Source: a virus | Direction: 5' to 3' (one strand) | Virus genome (UHGV): UHGV-0177389 | Length of the DNA stretch: 29,218 bases | In this document: positions 361-25,588 of the stretch, piece after piece | Numbering within the stretch: position 1 is the stretch's first letter | Layout of the letters: each line of letters starts with the position of its first letter | Notes under the pieces: model-generated | What the model was told of the DNA's origin: nothing | The model's input: only the letters and a program-made list of their open reading frames with translations | Databases searched by the model: none | Translations under genes and position numbers: made by a program

Positions 361-3300
361 TCACCGCATCACCGGATCCACCTGGTTTATTAGTGGCGCA
401 ATCCAGAACAGGTTATTGCCGGGTATCAGGGTTCGGACATTATGCACAATACGATCACCGGCATCACCATTCAACACTCCTGCGGTCACATCAATGATGC
501 TATCCGCAAGACCAAATGACGGTCCGAATAGAGATCCTACGAATCCACGACTGGCATACCTAGACTGTGTGCCAGTGCCAAATAAAGCCCCCAGCCCAAC
601 AGCACCACCAGTAGCCTTTTCAGCCATATTGTTATATTCCATCAATGGCCCAAGAATACCGGATCTATCTATACCCTCAAGCACCAGCTTCTCTGGTGAC
701 CAGTCAACATTTTTCCCTTTCGATGCTTCTTTAAGCGCATAGACCAGTGAGCCAAGAGCAATCTGAAATGCAGTGCCATAATAAAATTGCGCAGTTCCTT
801 CCTGTAACCCACCAAGTAGCGCACGGTTGTATGAAGCCGTTGTGAATGATTTAAACTGAAATATCGTTCGCCCCATTGGAGTACTCGCCCATAAAGGTGT
901 GTCACCAATACCGGGGGTAATGATAGTGTTATTAACGTCTTTCAGAACCGCTGACTGGAATACTCCGGCAACGTACTGATCGTCCCATTTATCAAAGTTA
1001 CCAATGTGCCATCCATCAATTACCTCACCATGTTTCTCGAACTCACTGCGAATACGCGCAGCCATATTGTCGTTGATACCGAGTTTTGCCATGCGACGTG
1101 CAGAAAACGCACCAGACAAAATACCGTCTGACGTGAGCATTCCGTTCATGGATTTGTTTATGTCATTAAATCGATCCATGAGTGTCAGCTTGCCGAAGGC
1201 ATCAGTAATTCGCTCCATTCCTGCTTCGACTGCTGTTGTCCTGGAAGAACTGTCAACAAGATCACCAATTGCACGAGAACGTGAATGTAGTACAGTTTCC
1301 AATCCAATCCCCATCTTCAACATCTCTTCTTTGCTGGCCTTAAATGCCGGTGATTGGGATATCTGAGAAGCATAGCCTTTCATGGAGTTACGGAAACCAT
1401 TAACCATAACCCCTCTGGCCAGATCTGGAATAGCTGATACTGTCATTCCACCGAGTTTTGTCGTGAAGTTCACATCCCGCAGAAAAGCGCCAGCACGAAC
1501 AAAAAACGAAGACGGGTCATCAGGCATACCATATGTACCAACAAGACGATCGCGTAATGCTGTTATGTCTCTGAGATCATTTGCTCTTGATTTTGAAAGT
1601 CTGGACTGTTCTTTCCGTAATTCCTTTTCGTACTTTCGCATTAATGAATCGAGTTTACCCTGAGGAACAACTTCACCATTGCTCTCATAACGTGCTTTCA
1701 GATTTGCCACACTTTCGTCATATTTTGCCTTTATTTTTTCAGGCACTTCCCGTAACAGACTGTCATATTCGTCCTCAATTAATTGCAGACGCTCTGTCAT
1801 AGTTCGTTTGCCAAATGTTCTCGTCAACTCAATTTCTGCTGCCGCTTCACGGATATGACGTTGTAGAACGTAATTCACATCACTTTCGAGATAATCCCTG
1901 ATAAGACTATCAGGCACATTTAATGTTCTTTCTTTCGTACTACCTGCGGCTTTTACAGAAAATACGCTGACAAAATCCTGTGGAACCTTAGCACCAGTAA
2001 TTTTATTAATTACGATATCCGCTGCAATTTCAGCATCCTCAGGATCCAGTGTTTTATTGCCTCTCGACCACCAGTCAACCAAAATACGTCGAAATTTATC
2101 GCGTTCACTGATTATTTTTCCAACTTTATATATACGTGGGAAATAGCTTGCCTGGCCTAATGCTTTCAGTTCTTCATCTGGCGGCAATAAACCAAGCTTT
2201 TGCATTTCAACCTTCACCCGATTTAATACAGTTCGCATCGCCTGCGCCGTTTCCTGAACAACAGGATTAGCATGCACATCACCGCTTCGCATAGCATTCC
2301 CAACCTGCTGACGAAATGAATCAAAACTCATGTCACCACCATCAGCTTTATACTTTGCGTATGCCTGTTTATTTCCGACAACAACAGCAGCTTCTTCACG
2401 CTGCCATCCACGTGTACGGGTTTCTACAGCTACCGGTGTTTCAATCCCCCTTTCATTTCCTTTAAGGGTGAAATTATTTTCGGCTAACTCCAGCGTTGTT
2501 TTTCGCACTGTCTTGGACGGAGACTCCATTAACCTTGTCAAAGGAGTAAGATAGCTCCCTGCTTTCCATGCAGCCTTTCCAACCACCCCACCGGAAACAG
2601 GGGTTAAATCATCCAGAGTCGCTGTATCAATTTTCATAGCACCAACACTACCACCATCAGAAAGCGAAGCGGCAGCCCTGTCAGTCGCTGATGTAATGCT
2701 CATATTATCAAGAGCATCAGCAACCTCACGCGTGGCTGCAGCCCGGACGGATGGCGAAAGCGCAACACCAGCACTGGCAAACACGCCGCTCATCATCGCA
2801 CCCGCTGCAATGTGAGCGGCACTTTCACCCCATGAGCGTGTTATTTGCTGATTATTCAGCACAACCTCGCTTAATGCTGTACCGGCTGCACCAATCGCAA
2901 TCTGTGAGCCAATACGCGCCAGTGCCCCTCCTTGAGCACCGGGGATAAACATTGACGCAACAGTAACCGGATCCATTCCCGCAGCAATACTGGCAAGGGT
3001 TCCAACTACGCCAGCATCAGACAATAAACGTCTGTCTTCATTTTCATCATCTATCTGCTGCTTAATCCACGCCGTTTCCTCTGGCGATCGGGAATCTGCA
3101 AATTTCGCCCCCCAGTATTCATAACCGTGCAACTCATTTTTATCAGCATATGGGTTATAACCTTCGACCGGTTCAAACTGTCTGGCTGGTCGGAAAAAAC
3201 CAGCCAGAATATTGTTCTGTCGCATTGCAGCCCCCCATACGGAAGGCTCCGGTGGCAATGGCTCAGGATTAGCCCCTTCCGGAAGGGCAACATCAAACCC

Positions 3301-6092: not shown

Positions 6093-6637
6093 TATAATCC
6101 TCCGGGTAATCTGGTTCCTGCTGCTGCCCCGATTGGCGCAGGGGTGCTTTGAGTAAACGGACTCCACGTCCCACCAAACATCTGGTACGCACCGTATGCC
6201 TTCAGAGGCGCAGTGAGCAATGTTGTTGCTGATCCCACATTCCCCTGTTTACGGGCTGAACTGGCTTCTGCTTTATAGTTGGCAGCCTGAACCTGATAAC
6301 CGTAAGCCTCGCGTTGCGCGTTATTCACCGTCGTCAGAGAATCAAGAGCGCCAAACTGGGCAGTGTCGCCAAATATATCCAGCGCGTTACCTGTAGATAA
6401 ATCAGCGCCGGTAGCCCCCATTGTCGCCGCCTGTGTACCAAGCCGCTGTCGGGTCTCTCTGCGCCGTTGCTCAGCTTCAGCGTTACCTCTGTTTATTGCA
6501 TCATTTGCCTGAGCAGTGGCTATATCTGCGTTCGCTTCTGCAACCTTCGAGGCATACTTTCCCTGTTGGTACTGGGTGTATGCCTGAATGCCACTCATGG
6601 CGAGCATTGCGCCACCAGCAATAACCGGATCGCACAT
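6092..6637 (-). CDS. internal core protein (181 aa), T7 gp14-like by position
   Basis: ORF track; ATG overlaps upstream stop; GGAGAG upstream; Ala/Gln-rich small protein between tail and large core genes. Confidence 0.45.
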   Translation of the reverse strand: MCDPVIAGGAMLAMSGIQAYTQYQQGKYASKVAEANADIATAQANDAINRGNAEAEQRRRETRQRLGTQAATMGATGADLSTGNALDIFGDTAQFGALDSLTTVNNAQREAYGYQVQAANYKAEASSARKQGNVGSATTLLTAPLKAYGAYQMFGGTWSPFTQSTPAPIGAAAGTRLPGGL

Positions 6638-11349: not shown

Positions 11350-11369
11350 GTGGGTCTGTTACGACCCAC
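11350..11369 (-). other. stem-loop downstream of the capsid gene (GTGGGTC/GACCCAC), no U-tract
   Basis: 7-bp inverted repeat with 6-nt loop seen in sequence, 17 nt after the capsid stop; possible RNA stability or partial termination element. Confidence 0.3.
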
Positions 11370-11385
11370 AGGTTAATAACAGGCG

Positions 11386-15346: not shown

Positions 15347-15383
15347 TTGACATTTAATGCACGAATTATTACCCTTCAGGTAA
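15347..15383 (+). promoter_or_regulatory. TTGACA -35-like hexamer followed by a perfect TTACC-N5-GGTAA operator-type palindrome (15369-15383)
   Basis: Seen in sequence; the palindrome matches the immunity-region operators; strand of the promoter is uncertain. Confidence 0.35.
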
Positions 15384-15705
15384 GTAAATAGTTCATTCCG
15401 GTTATTAACCTGACTGGCTTGTCGTTAAATTGAACAGGTGGAGTGAGCTTTTATTTTGAGCAGTACGGCGTATGGCACATGCGCCGATAGCGGTCTGGAT
15501 ACGTTTAAGGGGCACCCTCCCTTGCTCGGGCAAACGAACCAGGTAGCCGGAATGTGCAAGTCGAGCGGTTTTATTCCGCGCACGGGGATTCACCATCCCG
15601 GCGATTCGGTGTGACGCCTCGGAAGAGACGAGGGTGCAACGATGAGAGCATTTATGGAGCCGCGACAAAGTGTGGCGCCTTAACAGGCTAAGTGCTCTCA
15701 GCGTT

Positions 15706-15782
15706 GTGGCATTAGCTCAGTTGGACAGAGCAACCGCCTTCTAAGCGGTTGGTCGCAGGTTCGAATCCTGCATGCCACGCCA
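15706..15782 (+). tRNA. tRNA-Arg (anticodon UCU)
   Basis: Manual cloverleaf: 7-bp acceptor stem GTGGCAT/ATGCCAC, D arm GCTC...GAGC, anticodon stem ACCGC/GCGGT with loop CTTCTAA (anticodon TCT), T arm GCAGG-TTCGAAT-CCTGC, encoded CCA. Confidence 0.9.
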
Positions 15783-15867: not shown

Positions 15868-15945
15868 ACAGCAGGACGCCATTGCGATGACTTCATGCTG
15901 TAAACCAGTACAGCCACGGAAGGCATAACTCATTGCTTCCAGTTC

Positions 15946-15985: not shown

Positions 15986-16357
15986 ATGAGTGACAAAGAC
16001 ATTGAATCTGAAATTCAGGCTAAAGGTTTAGCCGCGCCGCGCGTTACGCCAGACCATATCGAGAGCATTATTGCTCAGGAGGCATATTTCACAGCAGAAG
16101 ATGGTGTCTTTGGCGTAGCCATAAAAGCGAAACATACTGGCGGAGAGGTAAACTACCAGCCGCACGAATCACTTTCTCTGCTGACGTTCTGCGTTCTGGT
16201 GCTGCGCAACGGCTTCACCGTCACCGGAGAGAGCGCCTGTGCAAGCCCGGAAAACTTTGATGCGGAAATTGGTCGGAAGATTGCCCGGCAGAATGCTGTA
16301 AACAAAATCTGGATGCTTGAAGGTTACTTGCTGAAGCAGAAGTTAAGCGAGCAATAA
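15986..16357 (+). CDS. hypothetical protein (123 aa), opposite-strand moron inside the morphogenesis module
   Basis: ORF track; ATG preceded by AAGGTGAGA; followed by a palindrome and a terminator; function unknown. Confidence 0.55.
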   Translation: MSDKDIESEIQAKGLAAPRVTPDHIESIIAQEAYFTAEDGVFGVAIKAKHTGGEVNYQPHESLSLLTFCVLVLRNGFTVTGESACASPENFDAEIGRKIARQNAVNKIWMLEGYLLKQKLSEQ

Positions 16358-17923: not shown

Positions 17924-18513
17924 TGATTACCATCCTGACGTTCTTTGAGTCGCTTCCTGGCTGCCGCTATGCGATCAGCAATTGTCACATTCACATTAAC
18001 ATCCAGGCGTTCTTTGAATGCATTGACGTCGACGTGCTTACCAATCAGTTCGAGGTTCTTCACCTTGTCAGGCCATTTAATTTTTTTGAGAATTGTCTCT
18101 ATCGAATCCTCGTTCATGTTCATGATGGTCGATGACAGATCAAAGCCACTAAGCGTAGTGCGCCAGATTTTCGGCCACTCGCGGATTGGCTTAAGGCTCC
18201 CATCGTCATTGAGGATATCAATCACGTCCATCTGGTCGATCTCCACCAGGCGCATGAGAACGTAATCGGCACTGACGCGCATTCGTTTGTTGCGCTCCTC
18301 CATCAACTCGGCAATCCGTTTTTGAATGCGTTCATCGCGCATCATGACACTGGCTTTAACTGCCGCTGTATTTGGGGAGAATCCTGCGTTAATCGCTGCC
18401 TGAGTCTGGTTTTCAGGCGTTTTGATGTATGACTGGCAATAAGCCTCCTGCATTGCGGTTAGTGGCTTAAATTGCGTTGATTTGCGTTTATAGGTTTTAG
18501 GTTCAGCAGGCAT
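17920..18513 (-). CDS. terminase small subunit
   Basis: ORF track 17920..18594 starts at TTG and its N-terminal extension covers a terminator hairpin; trimmed to ATG at 18513 (GGTGG 5 nt upstream; ATG at 18516 is the alternative); basic N-terminus; immediately upstream of terL. Confidence 0.6.
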   Translation of the reverse strand: MPAEPKTYKRKSTQFKPLTAMQEAYCQSYIKTPENQTQAAINAGFSPNTAAVKASVMMRDERIQKRIAELMEERNKRMRVSADYVLMRLVEIDQMDVIDILNDDGSLKPIREWPKIWRTTLSGFDLSSTIMNMNEDSIETILKKIKWPDKVKNLELIGKHVDVNAFKERLDVNVNVTIADRIAAARKRLKERQDGNQ

Positions 18514-18557
18514 CATAACCACCGTGGTAATAGTTACCGTTGTGGTAATAGTACCAT

Positions 18558-22406: not shown

Positions 22407-22483
22407 TTACCCCTTAGGTAATTAAAAACCACATAAGACATGAAATCAATAGAGATTAGAACATTTTATTACCTTCCAGGTAA
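22407..22483 (-). promoter_or_regulatory. internal promoter flanked by two TTACC-N5-GGTAA operators
   Basis: Minus strand reads operator (22469-22483), 19 nt, -35 TTGATT (22444-22449), 17 nt, -10 TTTAAT (22421-22426), operator (22407-22421), AAGGGG RBS, ATG at 22403. Confidence 0.5.
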
Positions 22484-22520: not shown

Positions 22521-23306
22521 TTACTTGATAAATCCTGCCGCCTTTCCCCGCCTGTATTCCTCCATCAGCCACTGCGCCGGTGTTATTCCCCCAAGGGTGG
22601 CGGCGTTAGGCATGCACCCGAAACTTCGCCCTGGTGGATGGTAAACGTCTCTCCCTGTGTCCGGAGGCGTACTCATGGGCTCTGGCTTTGCCTGTATGCT
22701 GATCACCGGATCGGGTATCTGCTGTCCGGAAGCCACCTTTTTCGCCCAATCATCGAGCAGCCTGCGTGCGTGTTTCTCAACCTCAATCTCGCTAAGCTGG
22801 CGCTGATACATTGCACGGCGGGTATCACATACGACCCAGTACATAACCGGATGTCGCCACGGGAATCTTTCGGGACCACCAGGATATAAACTTTTTTCCT
22901 TGCTGTACCGGTGAAACTCCGCCATCACATCGTCAATGGTGACGCCAAGAACCATCTTGCTGTCTTTGCACCACTTGATAAATTGCCCTGGAGACGGCCA
23001 GAACGGAGATTCACTGGCGCGGGCGTGGCGCATACCAGCAGAAACCTGTTCACGGGTTCGGATCCCCCCTTCGGCAAACGCAGCAATCCACTGCTGTTTT
23101 GCAGCAACTTCCTGCTCTGGCGTCTTCAGGTTGGTTACCACTGCCGCCGGAAACAGTTGTTTCAGCTGTTTAAAAAGGGCATCAACAAGCCTCTCTGCTG
23201 ACATGTTCACCACATTGTCATTGTTGACGTACTGATGCTCATAACCTGACATGCGAGAAAGGGCTTCTCCGTCACGGTTTTGTATCGCGGTAAAAACGTT
23301 GTTCAC
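22521..23306 (-). CDS. replication protein P-like (helicase loader)
   Basis: ORF track 22521..23321; GTG at 23306 preferred because GGAGGA lies 6 nt upstream and it overlaps the O-like stop; core W(I/V)xAFxExGI...GMRxAR...PFxPSPGQFxxWC matches recalled lambda P. Confidence 0.7.
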   Translation of the reverse strand: MNNVFTAIQNRDGEALSRMSGYEHQYVNNDNVVNMSAERLVDALFKQLKQLFPAAVVTNLKTPEQEVAAKQQWIAAFAEGGIRTREQVSAGMRHARASESPFWPSPGQFIKWCKDSKMVLGVTIDDVMAEFHRYSKEKSLYPGGPERFPWRHPVMYWVVCDTRRAMYQRQLSEIEVEKHARRLLDDWAKKVASGQQIPDPVISIQAKPEPMSTPPDTGRDVYHPPGRSFGCMPNAATLGGITPAQWLMEEYRRGKAAGFIK

Positions 23307-24118
23307 AAGAAATCCTCCCATGCTTCAGGGCTGTTCCAGTGCGGAACGTTGTTATCAGGTAATGTTGATTGCTTCTGTCTGCTAATCTGCAGCCGCCTTG
23401 CCAGCTTCTGCTCCCACTGTGCCTGATGGTATGCCTTACCCTCAGCCATCCAGTAAATTCTGAACTCTGCAAGTTCCTGTGCCGTTGGCAGACTGTCCAG
23501 GTAGATCCCCTGCAATGAGCTTTTCCGAAGAAAGTCATCTGATGGCTGCCATTGTTCATGCATGACAAATTTGCCTAATTGCCCTGGCCCACCAGGAGGA
23601 ACAAAGTTATTCATCACGGCGTTGTTTGCTCCGGGGTCATGAGGCACAGAATCCCCGCTTTTTGTCCTGCTCTCCCTCTCTTGGTTAAATGACTGGTTAT
23701 ATGACTGGTTCTGGATCCCGTTTTTGGGATCATTCAACATCCCGTTTTTGGGATCATTCAACATCCCGTTTTTGGGTATATTCCCGTTTTCGGTAACATT
23801 ACCGTTTTCGGGTTCATTGCCCCCCTCCCGGTTGCCTTTAATGTTCCCGTTTTTGGTTATATTAAGAGAGAAAACCCGCACTCTTTTTGTCGCTCCCTTT
23901 CTCTCTCCGGTATCTGAAATAAGCCCCATTTTCATGAGCGATATAAGCCCGGCCTGCACGGTTTTTTTATTCAGGCAAGTGTCTTTAACGAGGCGTTCTA
24001 TGCTGGGGTAGCAGAGGTTATATTCATCGGCTCTGTCAGCCATCGAGAGCAGTATGAGCTTTAATGATGAGCTACCTGGATCTGTCTCCCAGGCCCAATC
24101 TGTTGCATGTCTGCTCAT
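23303..24118 (-). CDS. replication initiator O-like protein
   Basis: ORF track; GGAG RBS; directly upstream of and overlapping the P-like gene; iteron array inside the coding sequence encodes an Asn/Gly-rich repetitive linker, as in lambda O. Confidence 0.65.
   Translation of the reverse strand: MSRHATDWAWETDPGSSSLKLILLSMADRADEYNLCYPSIERLVKDTCLNKKTVQAGLISLMKMGLISDTGERKGATKRVRVFSLNITKNGNIKGNREGGNEPENGNVTENGNIPKNGMLNDPKNGMLNDPKNGIQNQSYNQSFNQERESRTKSGDSVPHDPGANNAVMNNFVPPGGPGQLGKFVMHEQWQPSDDFLRKSSLQGIYLDSLPTAQELAEFRIYWMAEGKAYHQAQWEQKLARRLQISRQKQSTLPDNNVPHWNSPEAWEDFL
23712..23862. repeat. iteron array, putative origin of replication inside the O-like gene
   Basis: At least six direct repeats with core CCCGTTTT(T)GG; the first three are 24-bp units starting at 23717, 23741 and 23765. 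Confidence 0.65.
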
Positions 24119-24414: not shown

Positions 24415-24429
24415 TTACCTTTGAGGTAC
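24415..24429. promoter_or_regulatory. imperfect operator-like site TTACC-TTTGA-GGTAC with downstream -35-like TTGATA
   Basis: Seen in sequence; on the minus strand reads site, 18 nt, TTGATA, 17 nt, CAAAAT (weak -10). Confidence 0.3.
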
Positions 24430-24715: not shown

Positions 24716-24751
24716 AGCTATTGCCTGATATTTATTTCAGATAATAAATAT

Positions 24752-24814
24752 TCACCCATAAGGTAACAAAAATCAAGGATAGTTACCCATGAGGTGCATT
24801 TACCTGTTGGGTAA
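24752..24814. promoter_or_regulatory. right operator region: three TTACC-N5-GGTAA-type sites plus cro-like promoter
   Basis: Sites at 24752-24766 (TCACC-CATAA-GGTAA), 24783-24797 (TTACC-CATGA-GGTGC) and 24800-24814 (perfect); minus-strand -35 TTGATT (24771-24776) and -10 GAATAT (24748-24753), 17-nt spacer. Confidence 0.55.
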
Positions 24815-24869
24815 TATTGCTTTAAATTGAATCATCTACTGATTCATATATGAGGCGATTTTCCAGAAA

Positions 24870-25454
24870 ATGAAAAGTATCCAGGACGTCCGCAGGCAAA
24901 ATCTCAACGACTTGATCGACCGTGAATTCAATGGTGTTCAGACGCGGATGGCTGAAAAACTTGGAACTCAGGCAAATCTGGTAAACCGCTGGGCTCTTGG
25001 TAAGAAGGTTATCGGCGATCAGGTTGCGCGAAAAATTGAAGCTGCCGCCAATAAACCCCGTAACTGGCTTGATATCGATCGCTCGCTTTCTCAGGAAGGT
25101 TTTCAGCCTGTCGGCCCAAGCGACATTGGCCAGCTGGCGGCTCACAACCTGGAACGCTGGATGAGCGAAAGCCGCGACCTTTCAACACAGGGAAAACTTC
25201 ACCGCGCATCCGGCGTAGCCCAGGTGACAATCAGCCGCCTGTTAAACAATGAGGTCAGCGTTTCCATTTCCACCCTGGAGAATGTTGCATCCGCATTCGG
25301 GCGTCACGGCTATGAATTACTGATTCACCCGCACGACCCTGCGACCATCAACTATGATCGCTCGCGCTACGCATTGTTACCCGAAACCGAGAAAGCAAAG
25401 ATCGAAAGTTACATTGAATTTGTCATCAACCAGAACGAAAAAAACAAACAATAA
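24870..25454 (+). CDS. prophage repressor (194 aa) with two predicted HTH segments and no recognisable S24 peptidase domain
   Basis: ORF track; HTH-like TRMAEKLGTQANLVNRW and ASGVAQVTISRLLNNE; divergent from the cro-like gene; operators on both sides. Confidence 0.6.
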   Translation: MKSIQDVRRQNLNDLIDREFNGVQTRMAEKLGTQANLVNRWALGKKVIGDQVARKIEAAANKPRNWLDIDRSLSQEGFQPVGPSDIGQLAAHNLERWMSESRDLSTQGKLHRASGVAQVTISRLLNNEVSVSISTLENVASAFGRHGYELLIHPHDPATINYDRSRYALLPETEKAKIESYIEFVINQNEKNKQ

Positions 25455-25475
25455 AACCATATTTTTCAGTAAGTA

Positions 25476-25499
25476 AGCCGCCTTATGGCGGCTTTTTTA
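25476..25499 (+). terminator. intrinsic terminator after the repressor gene
   Basis: 7-bp stem AGCCGCC/GGCGGCT with 4-nt loop followed by TTTTTTA, 22 nt after the stop. Confidence 0.65.
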
Positions 25500-25511: not shown

Positions 25512-25588
25512 TTACCTAACGGGTAATTTTTTTAACTCATATCTATTGACATCAAACCATATACGCATAATTATTACCTCAACGGTAA
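25512..25588 (+). promoter_or_regulatory. left operator region: two perfect TTACC-N5-GGTAA sites flanking a promoter
   Basis: Sites at 25512-25526 and 25574-25588; -35 TTGACA at 25546-25551; -10-like AATTAT about 17 nt downstream; precedes the plus-strand early operon. Confidence 0.55.

Follow-up and report, generated by a model that had tools for sequence, protein, structure and literature searches.

Rep, the main repressor of a phiV10-like Escherichia coli prophage, has two helix-turn-helix-like segments and is probably a non-cleaving repressor of the SPC32H type under antirepressor control

A prophage repressor that carries two helix-turn-helix (HTH)-like segments and no recognisable autocleavage domain raises two questions: which of the segments reads the operator, and by what route is such a protein switched off when the prophage is induced? 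We considered both for Rep, the product of a gene in UHGV virus genome UHGV-0177389, of which a stretch of 29,218 nucleotides was analysed at its full length and is called the window throughout.

The window is an E. coli phiV10/epsilon15-like podophage prophage of the genus Uetakevirus. Among complete E. coli genomes its best match is MSB1_8B (99.0% identity over 91% of the window), and it represents a mosaic variant with structural and accessory genes unlike those of phiV10, ZX5 and O157 typing phages 9 and 10. Related prophages in E. coli chromosomes are adjoined by guaA. The rep region was matched in 566 of 5,426 complete genomes, and the DNA of the locus is 100% identical to that of phage EC.W1-9 and 98% identical to that of phiV10. 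The rep gene and a cro-like gene are transcribed divergently (Table 1), with a DnaT/O-like replication operon on one side of the pair and, on the other, beyond the hairpin that follows rep, the early-left operon with PD-(D/E)XK/RecT recombination genes. An antisense open reading frame of 107 aa (24822-25145), counted as lying entirely within rep and unannotated in the records examined, was treated as spurious.

Table 1 Features of the rep locus and operator dyads in the window
Feature	Coordinates	Strand	Basis and remarks
Head/portal operon dyad, perfect	15369..15383		~90 nt upstream of operon (-)
terS tandem dyads	18534-18548 (perfect), 18516-18530 (1 mismatch)	-	abut small-terminase ATG at 18513
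DUF1064-gene dyads, both perfect	22407-22421, 22469-22483	-	62 bp apart, bracket TTGATT-17-TTTAAT
Replication-operon dyad (1 mismatch)	24415..24429		~18 nt upstream of promoter-like TTGATA-17-CAAAAT (-); conserved in Tyrion
Terminator-like hairpin 3' of cro-like gene	24463-24444		sequence scan
cro-like gene, 76 aa	24485..24715	-	ORF; phrog_35 'transcriptional repressor', E 5.6e-13; equivalent of phiV10 p41
Promoter-like site of cro-like gene, TTGTTA-17-TATTAT	24741..24769	-	consensus scan; putative function; dyad 24752-24766 within spacer
Operator dyads between rep and cro-like gene	24752-24766 (1 mismatch), 24783-24797 (2 mismatches), 24800-24814 (perfect)
rep, 194-aa prophage repressor	24870..25454, stop codon included	+	ATG-start ORF; homology
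Rep N-terminal HTH domain, aa 1-72	24870..25085	+	Cro/YdaS-type HTH; PHROG; predicted operator-reading head
Rep flexible linker, aa ~65-83	25062..25118	+	pLDDT <50; many indels; 21% identity to SPC32H
Rep second HTH_3-like segment, aa ~86-152	25125..25325	+	Pfam HTH_3; 5D4Z match; equivalent of SPC32H MDD
Rep C-terminal ~40 aa	25326..25451	+	5D50/5D4Z alignment up to aa 190; equivalent of SPC32H CAD
Intrinsic terminator-like hairpin 3' of rep	25475..25494	+	terminator annotated at equivalent spot in phiV10
Early-left promoter region	25512..25588	+	perfect dyads 25512-25526, 25574-25588, 62 bp apart

At the protein level Rep shows no difference (100% identity) from phiV10 gp40, vB_EcoP_ZX5 ORF21 and the repressors of E. 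coli O157 typing phages 9 and 10, and it is equally identical to that of phiv142-3 and to others. The repressors of epsilon15, SPN1S and SPC32H are 42% identical to it, the BLASTP alignment with the SPC32H protein covering 196 columns. A phmmer search of the PDB matched SPC32H Rep (5D50_A) over Rep aa 1-190 (E 4e-42), and 5D4Z, the SPC32H Rep(92-198) fragment, matched the second HTH_3-like segment (E 3e-9). An AlphaFold2 model of Rep was built with 36 homologues as input (mean pLDDT 75); Foldseek searches with this model ranked 5D50 ('Rep-Ant complex') and 5D4Z above generic XRE proteins, and the comparison with 5D4Z gave a target-normalised TM score of 0.74. By these matches Rep is assigned as the orthologue of Rep from Salmonella phage SPC32H and as the main repressor of the Uetakevirus prophage, and it is placed in the SPC32H-type Rep/Ant system, with the antirepressor gene ant seen only in near-identical genomes.

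Overexpression of the identical Rep in ZX5 abolished free phage and lowered holin and endolysin mRNA by ~99.97-99.99%, and the ZX5 lysogen is inducible with mitomycin C (PMC9782041). The protein has therefore been published and functionally tested, and the system is already known. The observation of two HTH segments is not new either, since the phiV10 GenBank record for the identical protein already states 'two helix-turn-helix motifs'.

Both HTH-like segments named in the preliminary description were recovered, at aa ~21-61 and 106-147, by Pfam, PHROG and the AlphaFold2 model. Pfam HTH_3 (PF01381) matched Rep with E 1.2e-9 (38.5 bits, with the cut-off at 23) over two stretches, the better one being aa 106-147, and this score above the gathering threshold assigns the protein to the XRE/Cro-C1 HTH superfamily. 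A weaker Cro/YdaS-type HTH at aa 21-61 (E 3e-4) fell short of its own Pfam cut-off, while PHROG repressor families matched aa 1-76 (E 2.8e-11) and the full protein (phrog_8, E 4.5e-27). The model consists of two helical bundles, H4-59 and H85-151, with a low-confidence linker (aa 65-83) between them. The N-terminal domain has a net charge of +5 and 53% identity to its SPC32H counterpart, and its recognition helix NLVNRW (N36-W41) is invariant in five phages of E. coli, Enterobacter, Klebsiella and Salmonella. The second segment has a net charge of 0 and 34% identity to SPC32H. In the C-terminal ~40 aa the identity to the SPC32H CAD is 47%, and residues I160, Y162, D163, Y167, L170, P171, E174, K175, K177, I178, F184, Q188 and N189 are invariant (n=5 phages).

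Papers citing the SPC32H work describe its Rep in three parts (PMC9986798): the N-terminal domain binds DNA, a middle domain (MDD) dimerises, and the CAD serves tetramerisation and binding of the antirepressor Ant; the role of the CAD is also described in PMC9638917. The middle segment of SPC32H Rep scores as HTH_3 in Pfam as well (E 2.8e-8), in the same pattern as Rep, and because this dimerisation domain does so, the second HTH-like segment of Rep is equated with it. By analogy, the second segment is predicted to be a dimerisation module and not a DNA reader.

The dyad-symmetric operator with a 5-bp spacer, on which the preliminary description had built its suggestion of two DNA-reading heads, held up when counted over the whole window: 10 sites match TTACC-N5-GGTAA with no more than one mismatch, where 0.48 are expected, and none of 100 shuffles reached 10. 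With its flanks the consensus is the 17-bp ATTACC-N5-GGTAAT, the half-sites of which are identical inverted repeats with centres 10 bp apart. A literature search for an earlier description of the ATTACC/GGTAAT operator returned only irrelevant papers. In phiV10, 12 of the 14 dyads lie in non-coding DNA, which makes up 6.5% of the genome (binomial P ~5e-13), and in these phages dyads precede essentially every transcription unit, namely terS, the head operon, the lysis cassette, int, replication, the DUF1064 gene and ant/tailspike.

The layout of the sites is conserved as well. Enterobacter phages Tyrion and BUCT554 have counterparts of the dyads at 24752 and 24800 at the same place between rep and the cro-like gene, likewise 48 bp apart, and this interval of SPC32H contains a 30+17-bp operator triplet. 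The early-left pair brackets a near-consensus promoter, TTGACA-17-AATTAT (25546-25574), and its 62-63-bp arrangement recurs in Tyrion, BUCT554, Klebsiella BUCT711 and SPC32H, so that five phages from four host genera share it. A pair of the DUF1064 type is also present in phiV10 (35070/35132) and SPC32H (35972/36034), the tandem dyads at terS recur in EC.W1-9 (6369/6387, terS at 6404), and the phiV10 equivalent of the head/portal dyad lies at 3252, before p06. A partner for the dyad at 24415 was sought by inspection 62 bp downstream and none was found, so this dyad is regarded as a single site. The 62-bp pairs are compatible with one tetramer holding two dyads, and we infer that a single Rep tetramer clamps each pair.

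Identical, inverted half-sites point to a single kind of domain bound twice on the same face of the helix, and they fit two N-terminal heads contributed to each dyad by separate Rep chains. The citing papers (PMC9986798, PMC9638917) give a like picture for SPC32H, where a Rep tetramer binds DNA and the two heads on each palindrome come from different dimers. The 'two heads' of the preliminary description, taken as the two HTH segments of one chain, are not supported by this comparison. It is improbable that both segments of each chain read DNA, with one subunit spanning the operator or contacting a second kind of site. The second segment is indeed a solid HTH_3 match, and its helix has the canonical form Q-x-T-I-S-R, Q118 and R123 being the same in all 36 close relatives, but symmetric dyads with identical half-sites 10 bp apart are the mark of one domain used twice, and the SPC32H counterpart scores as HTH_3 and is nevertheless called a dimerisation domain in PMC9986798. 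The second segment is variable in its putative recognition helix (Q118 is replaced by P in SPC32H), whereas the TTACC half-site and NLVNRW are invariant, and the charge of 0 contrasts with +5 in the N-terminal domain. An asymmetric operator with two types of half-site and conservation of both helices, the features of a tandem-HTH reader, were not found. It is even harder to credit that Rep is an antitoxin or an XRE-type regulator other than the immunity repressor, as the label 'VapI antidote' in the phage BP9 record and a below-threshold Pfam YdaS_toxin match might suggest: the gene lies where a phage repressor gene is classically found, transcribed away from a cro-like gene and between replication and recombination genes, operators surround it, overexpression in ZX5 blocks lytic growth, and the protein is orthologous to SPC32H Rep and to an epsilon15 gene annotated 'repressor'. 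An equally slight chance is left to inactivation of Rep by RecA-stimulated cleavage at a non-canonical site, in the manner of lambda CI and LexA. Mitomycin C induction of the ZX5 lysogen with the identical Rep agrees with it, yet alone does not separate the routes, and against it stand the missing S24 domain and AG/CG site, the homology of the C-terminal half of Rep to a solved dimerisation/tetramerisation module, and the induction of SPC32H through a LexA-controlled Ant, as given in reviews (PMC7380047).

The preliminary description had seen no autocleavage domain in Rep, and the searches agree with it. Pfam gave no Peptidase_S24 match to Rep even at E<=1, no Ala-Gly or Cys-Gly dipeptide occurs in its 194 aa, and no S24 domain was present among 86 clusters of Rep homologues, all of ~190-200 aa and from Enterobacterales. 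The C-terminal half is homologous to 5D4Z and not to an S24 peptidase. As judged from its sequence, Rep is not a member of the LexA/lambda CI S24 family. SPC32H Rep itself reportedly remains uncleaved during the SOS response, in work attributed to Kim and Ryu (2013).

The suggestion that induction may use an antirepressor agrees with the route established for SPC32H Rep (5D50; PMC7380047) and with the presence of a LexA-boxed Ant in four relatives. According to the same review, SPC32H Rep is induced through the LexA-controlled antirepressor Ant, and PMC9638917 describes an Ant tetramer that binds two Rep dimers and breaks the Rep tetramer. The search for a LexA-boxed antirepressor, proposed with the preliminary description, succeeded in the four relatives examined in detail and yielded none within the window. 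There, tblastn with SPC32H Ant gave nothing better than E 0.36, and the LexA core CTGT-N8-ACAG with at most one mismatch occurs at the chance level (9 sites against 10.3 expected). Perfect cores at 11356 and 15898 were considered as antirepressor boxes and rejected: their centres are G+C-rich, and the gene after 15898 belongs to the Phage_gp49_66 family. In SPC32H, ant adjoins the tailspike gene, and the equivalent region lies just past the left end of the window. phiV10 and EC.W1-9, the Rep proteins of which are identical to that studied here, have beside the tailspike gene an 85-aa open reading frame with 88% amino-acid identity to Ant of SPC32H. In both phages its ATG is preceded at ~20 nt by a perfect LexA box (TACTGT-N8-ACAGT; TACTGTGTATTTATACAGT or TACTGTATAAACATACAGT), and a Rep dyad lies ~40 nt upstream of the box. 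E. coli prophages FDAARGOS_1300 and MSB1_8B, which run on past the left end of the window, are arranged in the same way, with the LexA-boxed ant ~4-5 kb beyond window position 1; FDAARGOS_1300 is 99.9% identical to the first 6 kb of the window and its Rep differs at 3 residues. An exact match to the entire window was not found in any complete E. coli genome, so it is from these near-identical prophages that the source genome is presumed to encode ant.

ZX5, with an identical Rep, has a 100% identical Ant match, and Ant was found in 35 of 36 phage records with a full-length Rep and in none without it, a co-occurrence that partly reflects shared ancestry because nearly all records are from one genus. 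The records of most relatives, those of ZX5 and phiV10 included, still list the 85-aa gene as 'hypothetical', and Ant has no Pfam family.

Proteins other than the small Ant may feed into the same switch. Near-identical prophages encode two larger proteins, one with a BRO-N and one with a P22_AR_N domain, each ending in ~75 aa that share 42% identity with Ant (E 8e-16 and 4e-16); the gene of the P22_AR_N protein adjoins an Arc repressor gene. The 'anti-repressor' of the ZX5 study, ORF4, is the BRO-N protein and not the small Ant; its overexpression lowered prophage titres ~1000-fold and promoted lytic growth (PMC9782041). With such Ant-module proteins in relatives, and ORF4 of ZX5 being of the BRO-N type, several induction inputs are possible. 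That the small LexA-controlled Ant is not the sole or main inducer, and that the BRO-N and P22_AR_N fusions add inputs of which some would be LexA-independent, is nonetheless rather unlikely. In L004, over the ~10 kb scanned to the left of the window, the only perfect CTGT-N8-ACAG core lies before the small ant; the fusions are candidate Rep binders, encoded outside the window; and their presence varies among relatives, SPC32H having the small Ant only. This reading adds to the main explanation and does not exclude it.

With high probability, then, Rep is a repressor of the SPC32H type, composed of an N-terminal reader, an HTH_3-derived dimeriser and a C-terminal tetrameriser, which is not cleaved and is switched off by a LexA-boxed Ant. 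The homology, the domains, the absence of S24, the operators and the occurrence of a LexA-boxed Ant in genomes encoding this Rep are results of the present comparison. In the proposed mechanism, pairs of N-terminal Rep heads would bind the 17-bp ATTACC-N5-GGTAAT dyads, and a Rep tetramer would hold the two dyads 62 bp apart around the early-left promoter and block RNA polymerase; similar Rep sites would act in the rep/cro-like interval and ahead of other transcription units. Upon DNA damage LexA would be cleaved and the 85-aa Ant made from the LexA-boxed gene beside the tailspike gene, whereupon Ant would bind the C-terminal domains of Rep, break the tetramer and release the DNA. The tetramer, the domain roles and the mechanism of Ant are taken from the literature on the SPC32H homologue, by way of citing papers, PDB titles and GenBank annotation, and it is by analogy with SPC32H that we infer inactivation of this Rep by its Ant after LexA cleavage.

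The likeness to SPC32H Rep (PDB 5D4Z, 5D50) extends over the full length of the homologue, its size, its three-part architecture and its genome position; neither protein has an S24 domain, and both phages have ATTACC-N5-GGTAAT operators and the 62-bp early-left pair. The two differ in that overall identity is only 42%, the host is Salmonella in one case and E. coli in the other, Ant binding, the tetramer and resistance to RecA are predicted for Rep, and relatives of the window phage encode additional Ant-module fusions of which SPC32H has none. With lambda CI, LexA and P22 C2 the system shares divergent rep and cro genes, an N-terminal HTH that reads dyad operators, cooperativity in higher-order binding and a link between SOS and induction, but Rep is without the S24 domain, the Ala-Gly site and the Ser/Lys dyad; its C-terminal half is an HTH-derived dimeriser with a small tetramerisation domain, and SOS would enter through a LexA-controlled antirepressor. 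The CI and Tum proteins of coliphage 186 and the proteins of the Gifsy prophages (Lemire et al. 2011) are not known to have detectable homology to Rep or Ant. Common to these systems is a non-cleavable repressor inactivated by a small LexA-repressed antirepressor (PMC7380047). PMC9986798 groups SPC32H Rep with Rco of the Bacillus plasmid pLS20, which likewise has an N-terminal HTH, a small C-terminal tetramerisation domain (p53-like 'TetDloop') and control by a protein partner. Rco differs in having no middle HTH-like dimerisation domain, its sequence similarity is confined to the DNA-binding domain, and it governs a conjugation switch, not a phage switch.

A wider reading can be offered tentatively, at a little under even confidence: Rep would be a direct genome-wide silencer with a 62-bp tetramer bracket, ant would be under dual control by the LexA box and a Rep dyad, and the Ant module would have spread to proteins of the BRO-N and P22_AR_N types, so that induction could be triggered in several ways. 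Mildly novel leads may lie in the dispersal of operators over the genome with a conserved 62-bp bracket, in the Rep dyad next to the LexA box at ant, and in the occurrence of the Ant module on BRO-N and P22_AR_N proteins. For annotation, the present assignment means that Rep is described as an Ant-controlled repressor of the SPC32H type and is not mistaken for an orphan regulator of the XRE type or for a novel DNA binder with two heads. For the engineering of phiV10-type reporter phages and the induction of guaA-integrated prophages it points to the 85-aa gene beside the tailspike gene as the likely SOS-responsive inducer, and whoever engineers phiV10-type phages will meet Rep sites spread across the entire genome.

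Dyads of the ATTACC-N5-GGTAAT type, the inferred operator of the repressor Rep, are dispersed genome-wide in the window as well as in phage phiV10 and precede almost all transcription units, with coordinates given in the table. Non-coding DNA makes up 6.5% of phiV10 and holds 12 of the 14 Rep-type dyads. In the window the promoter-proximal dyads 22407-22421 and 18516-18530 each overlap the ribosome-binding region of the gene that follows: the spacer of the former contains AAGGGG, 4 nt 5′ of the ATG, and GGTGG lies inside the latter, directly ahead of the terS ATG.

Coordinates of Rep-type dyads and other features in the window and in related genomes
Feature	Position	Strand	Remarks
Rep-type dyads	window 15369-15383, 18516-18548, 22407-22483, 24415-24429		before terS and the head, replication and DUF1064 operons
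Rep-type dyads	phiV10 20497, 20877, 24692, 26870		before BRO-N gene, ant/tailspike, lysis cassette and int
tRNA-Arg, anticodon TCT	15706-15782	+	between head operon and terminase region
Perfect CTGT-N8-ACAG cores (n = 2)	11356-11371, 15898-15913		both intergenic, centres G+C-rich
DnaT/O-like replication gene	23303-24118	-	
Tandem repeats of 24 bp, perfect, 2.6 copies	23715-23776		inside DnaT/O-like replication gene
18-bp repeats, 3.1 copies, 78% matches	after 24-bp repeats		block overall 23715-23818
Ant-module region incl. Arc-family gene	L004 9729-9986, 10302-10997, 11965-12867, 13264-13695; L009 4669-9983		4-5 kb past window position 1

The rep ATG (24870) is not preceded by a good Shine-Dalgarno sequence at the usual distance, the nearest GAGG lying 14 nt 5′ of it. 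A consensus promoter for rep was likewise not detected. The rep promoter may be weak or activated, or the transcript near-leaderless, as with lambda PRM. Public assemblies contain truncated or frameshifted Rep variants (database proteins P0077 and P0083-P0086) which retain the N-terminal head only; P0077, present on 10 contigs, corresponds to Rep residues 1-106 followed by a stop. Such variants may represent decaying prophages or sequencing errors.

Among the other features of the window, a non-coding stretch of about 300 bp (15400-15700) is located upstream of the tRNA-Arg gene, and the second CTGT-N8-ACAG core is situated 88 bp ahead of a gene of the Phage_gp49_66 family (15986-16357). Neither core is likely to be a strong LexA site. 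The repeats within the replication gene code for the repeated peptide PKNGMLND and probably constitute origin iterons, as in lambda O.

Three Ant-module proteins have been found in the relatives, E. coli prophages L004 and L009: the 85-aa LexA-boxed antirepressor Ant, a BRO-N protein and a P22_AR_N protein whose gene is adjoined by an Arc-family gene. The C-terminal ~75 amino acids of the BRO-N and P22_AR_N proteins are identical and share 42% identity with Ant. The set looks like modular antirepressors with differing inputs. The small Ant of the SPC32H type is encoded at 2092-2346 of vB_EcoP_ZX5 [GenBank: MW722083.1], where it is labeled merely "hypothetical protein", as it is in phiV10 (p24), EC.W1-9 and most relatives; the anti-repressor assayed in the ZX5 study was the BRO-N "ORF4", not the small Ant (PMC9782041). 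Between E. coli and Salmonella phages (phiV10 and two further phages, L001 and L003) identity amounts to 88% for Ant versus 42% for Rep, and to 47% for the Ant-binding C-terminal domain of Rep. Ant is far better conserved than its target, a hint that diverged Reps may be targets of a single Ant (cross-talk), or else that Ant is under some other constraint.
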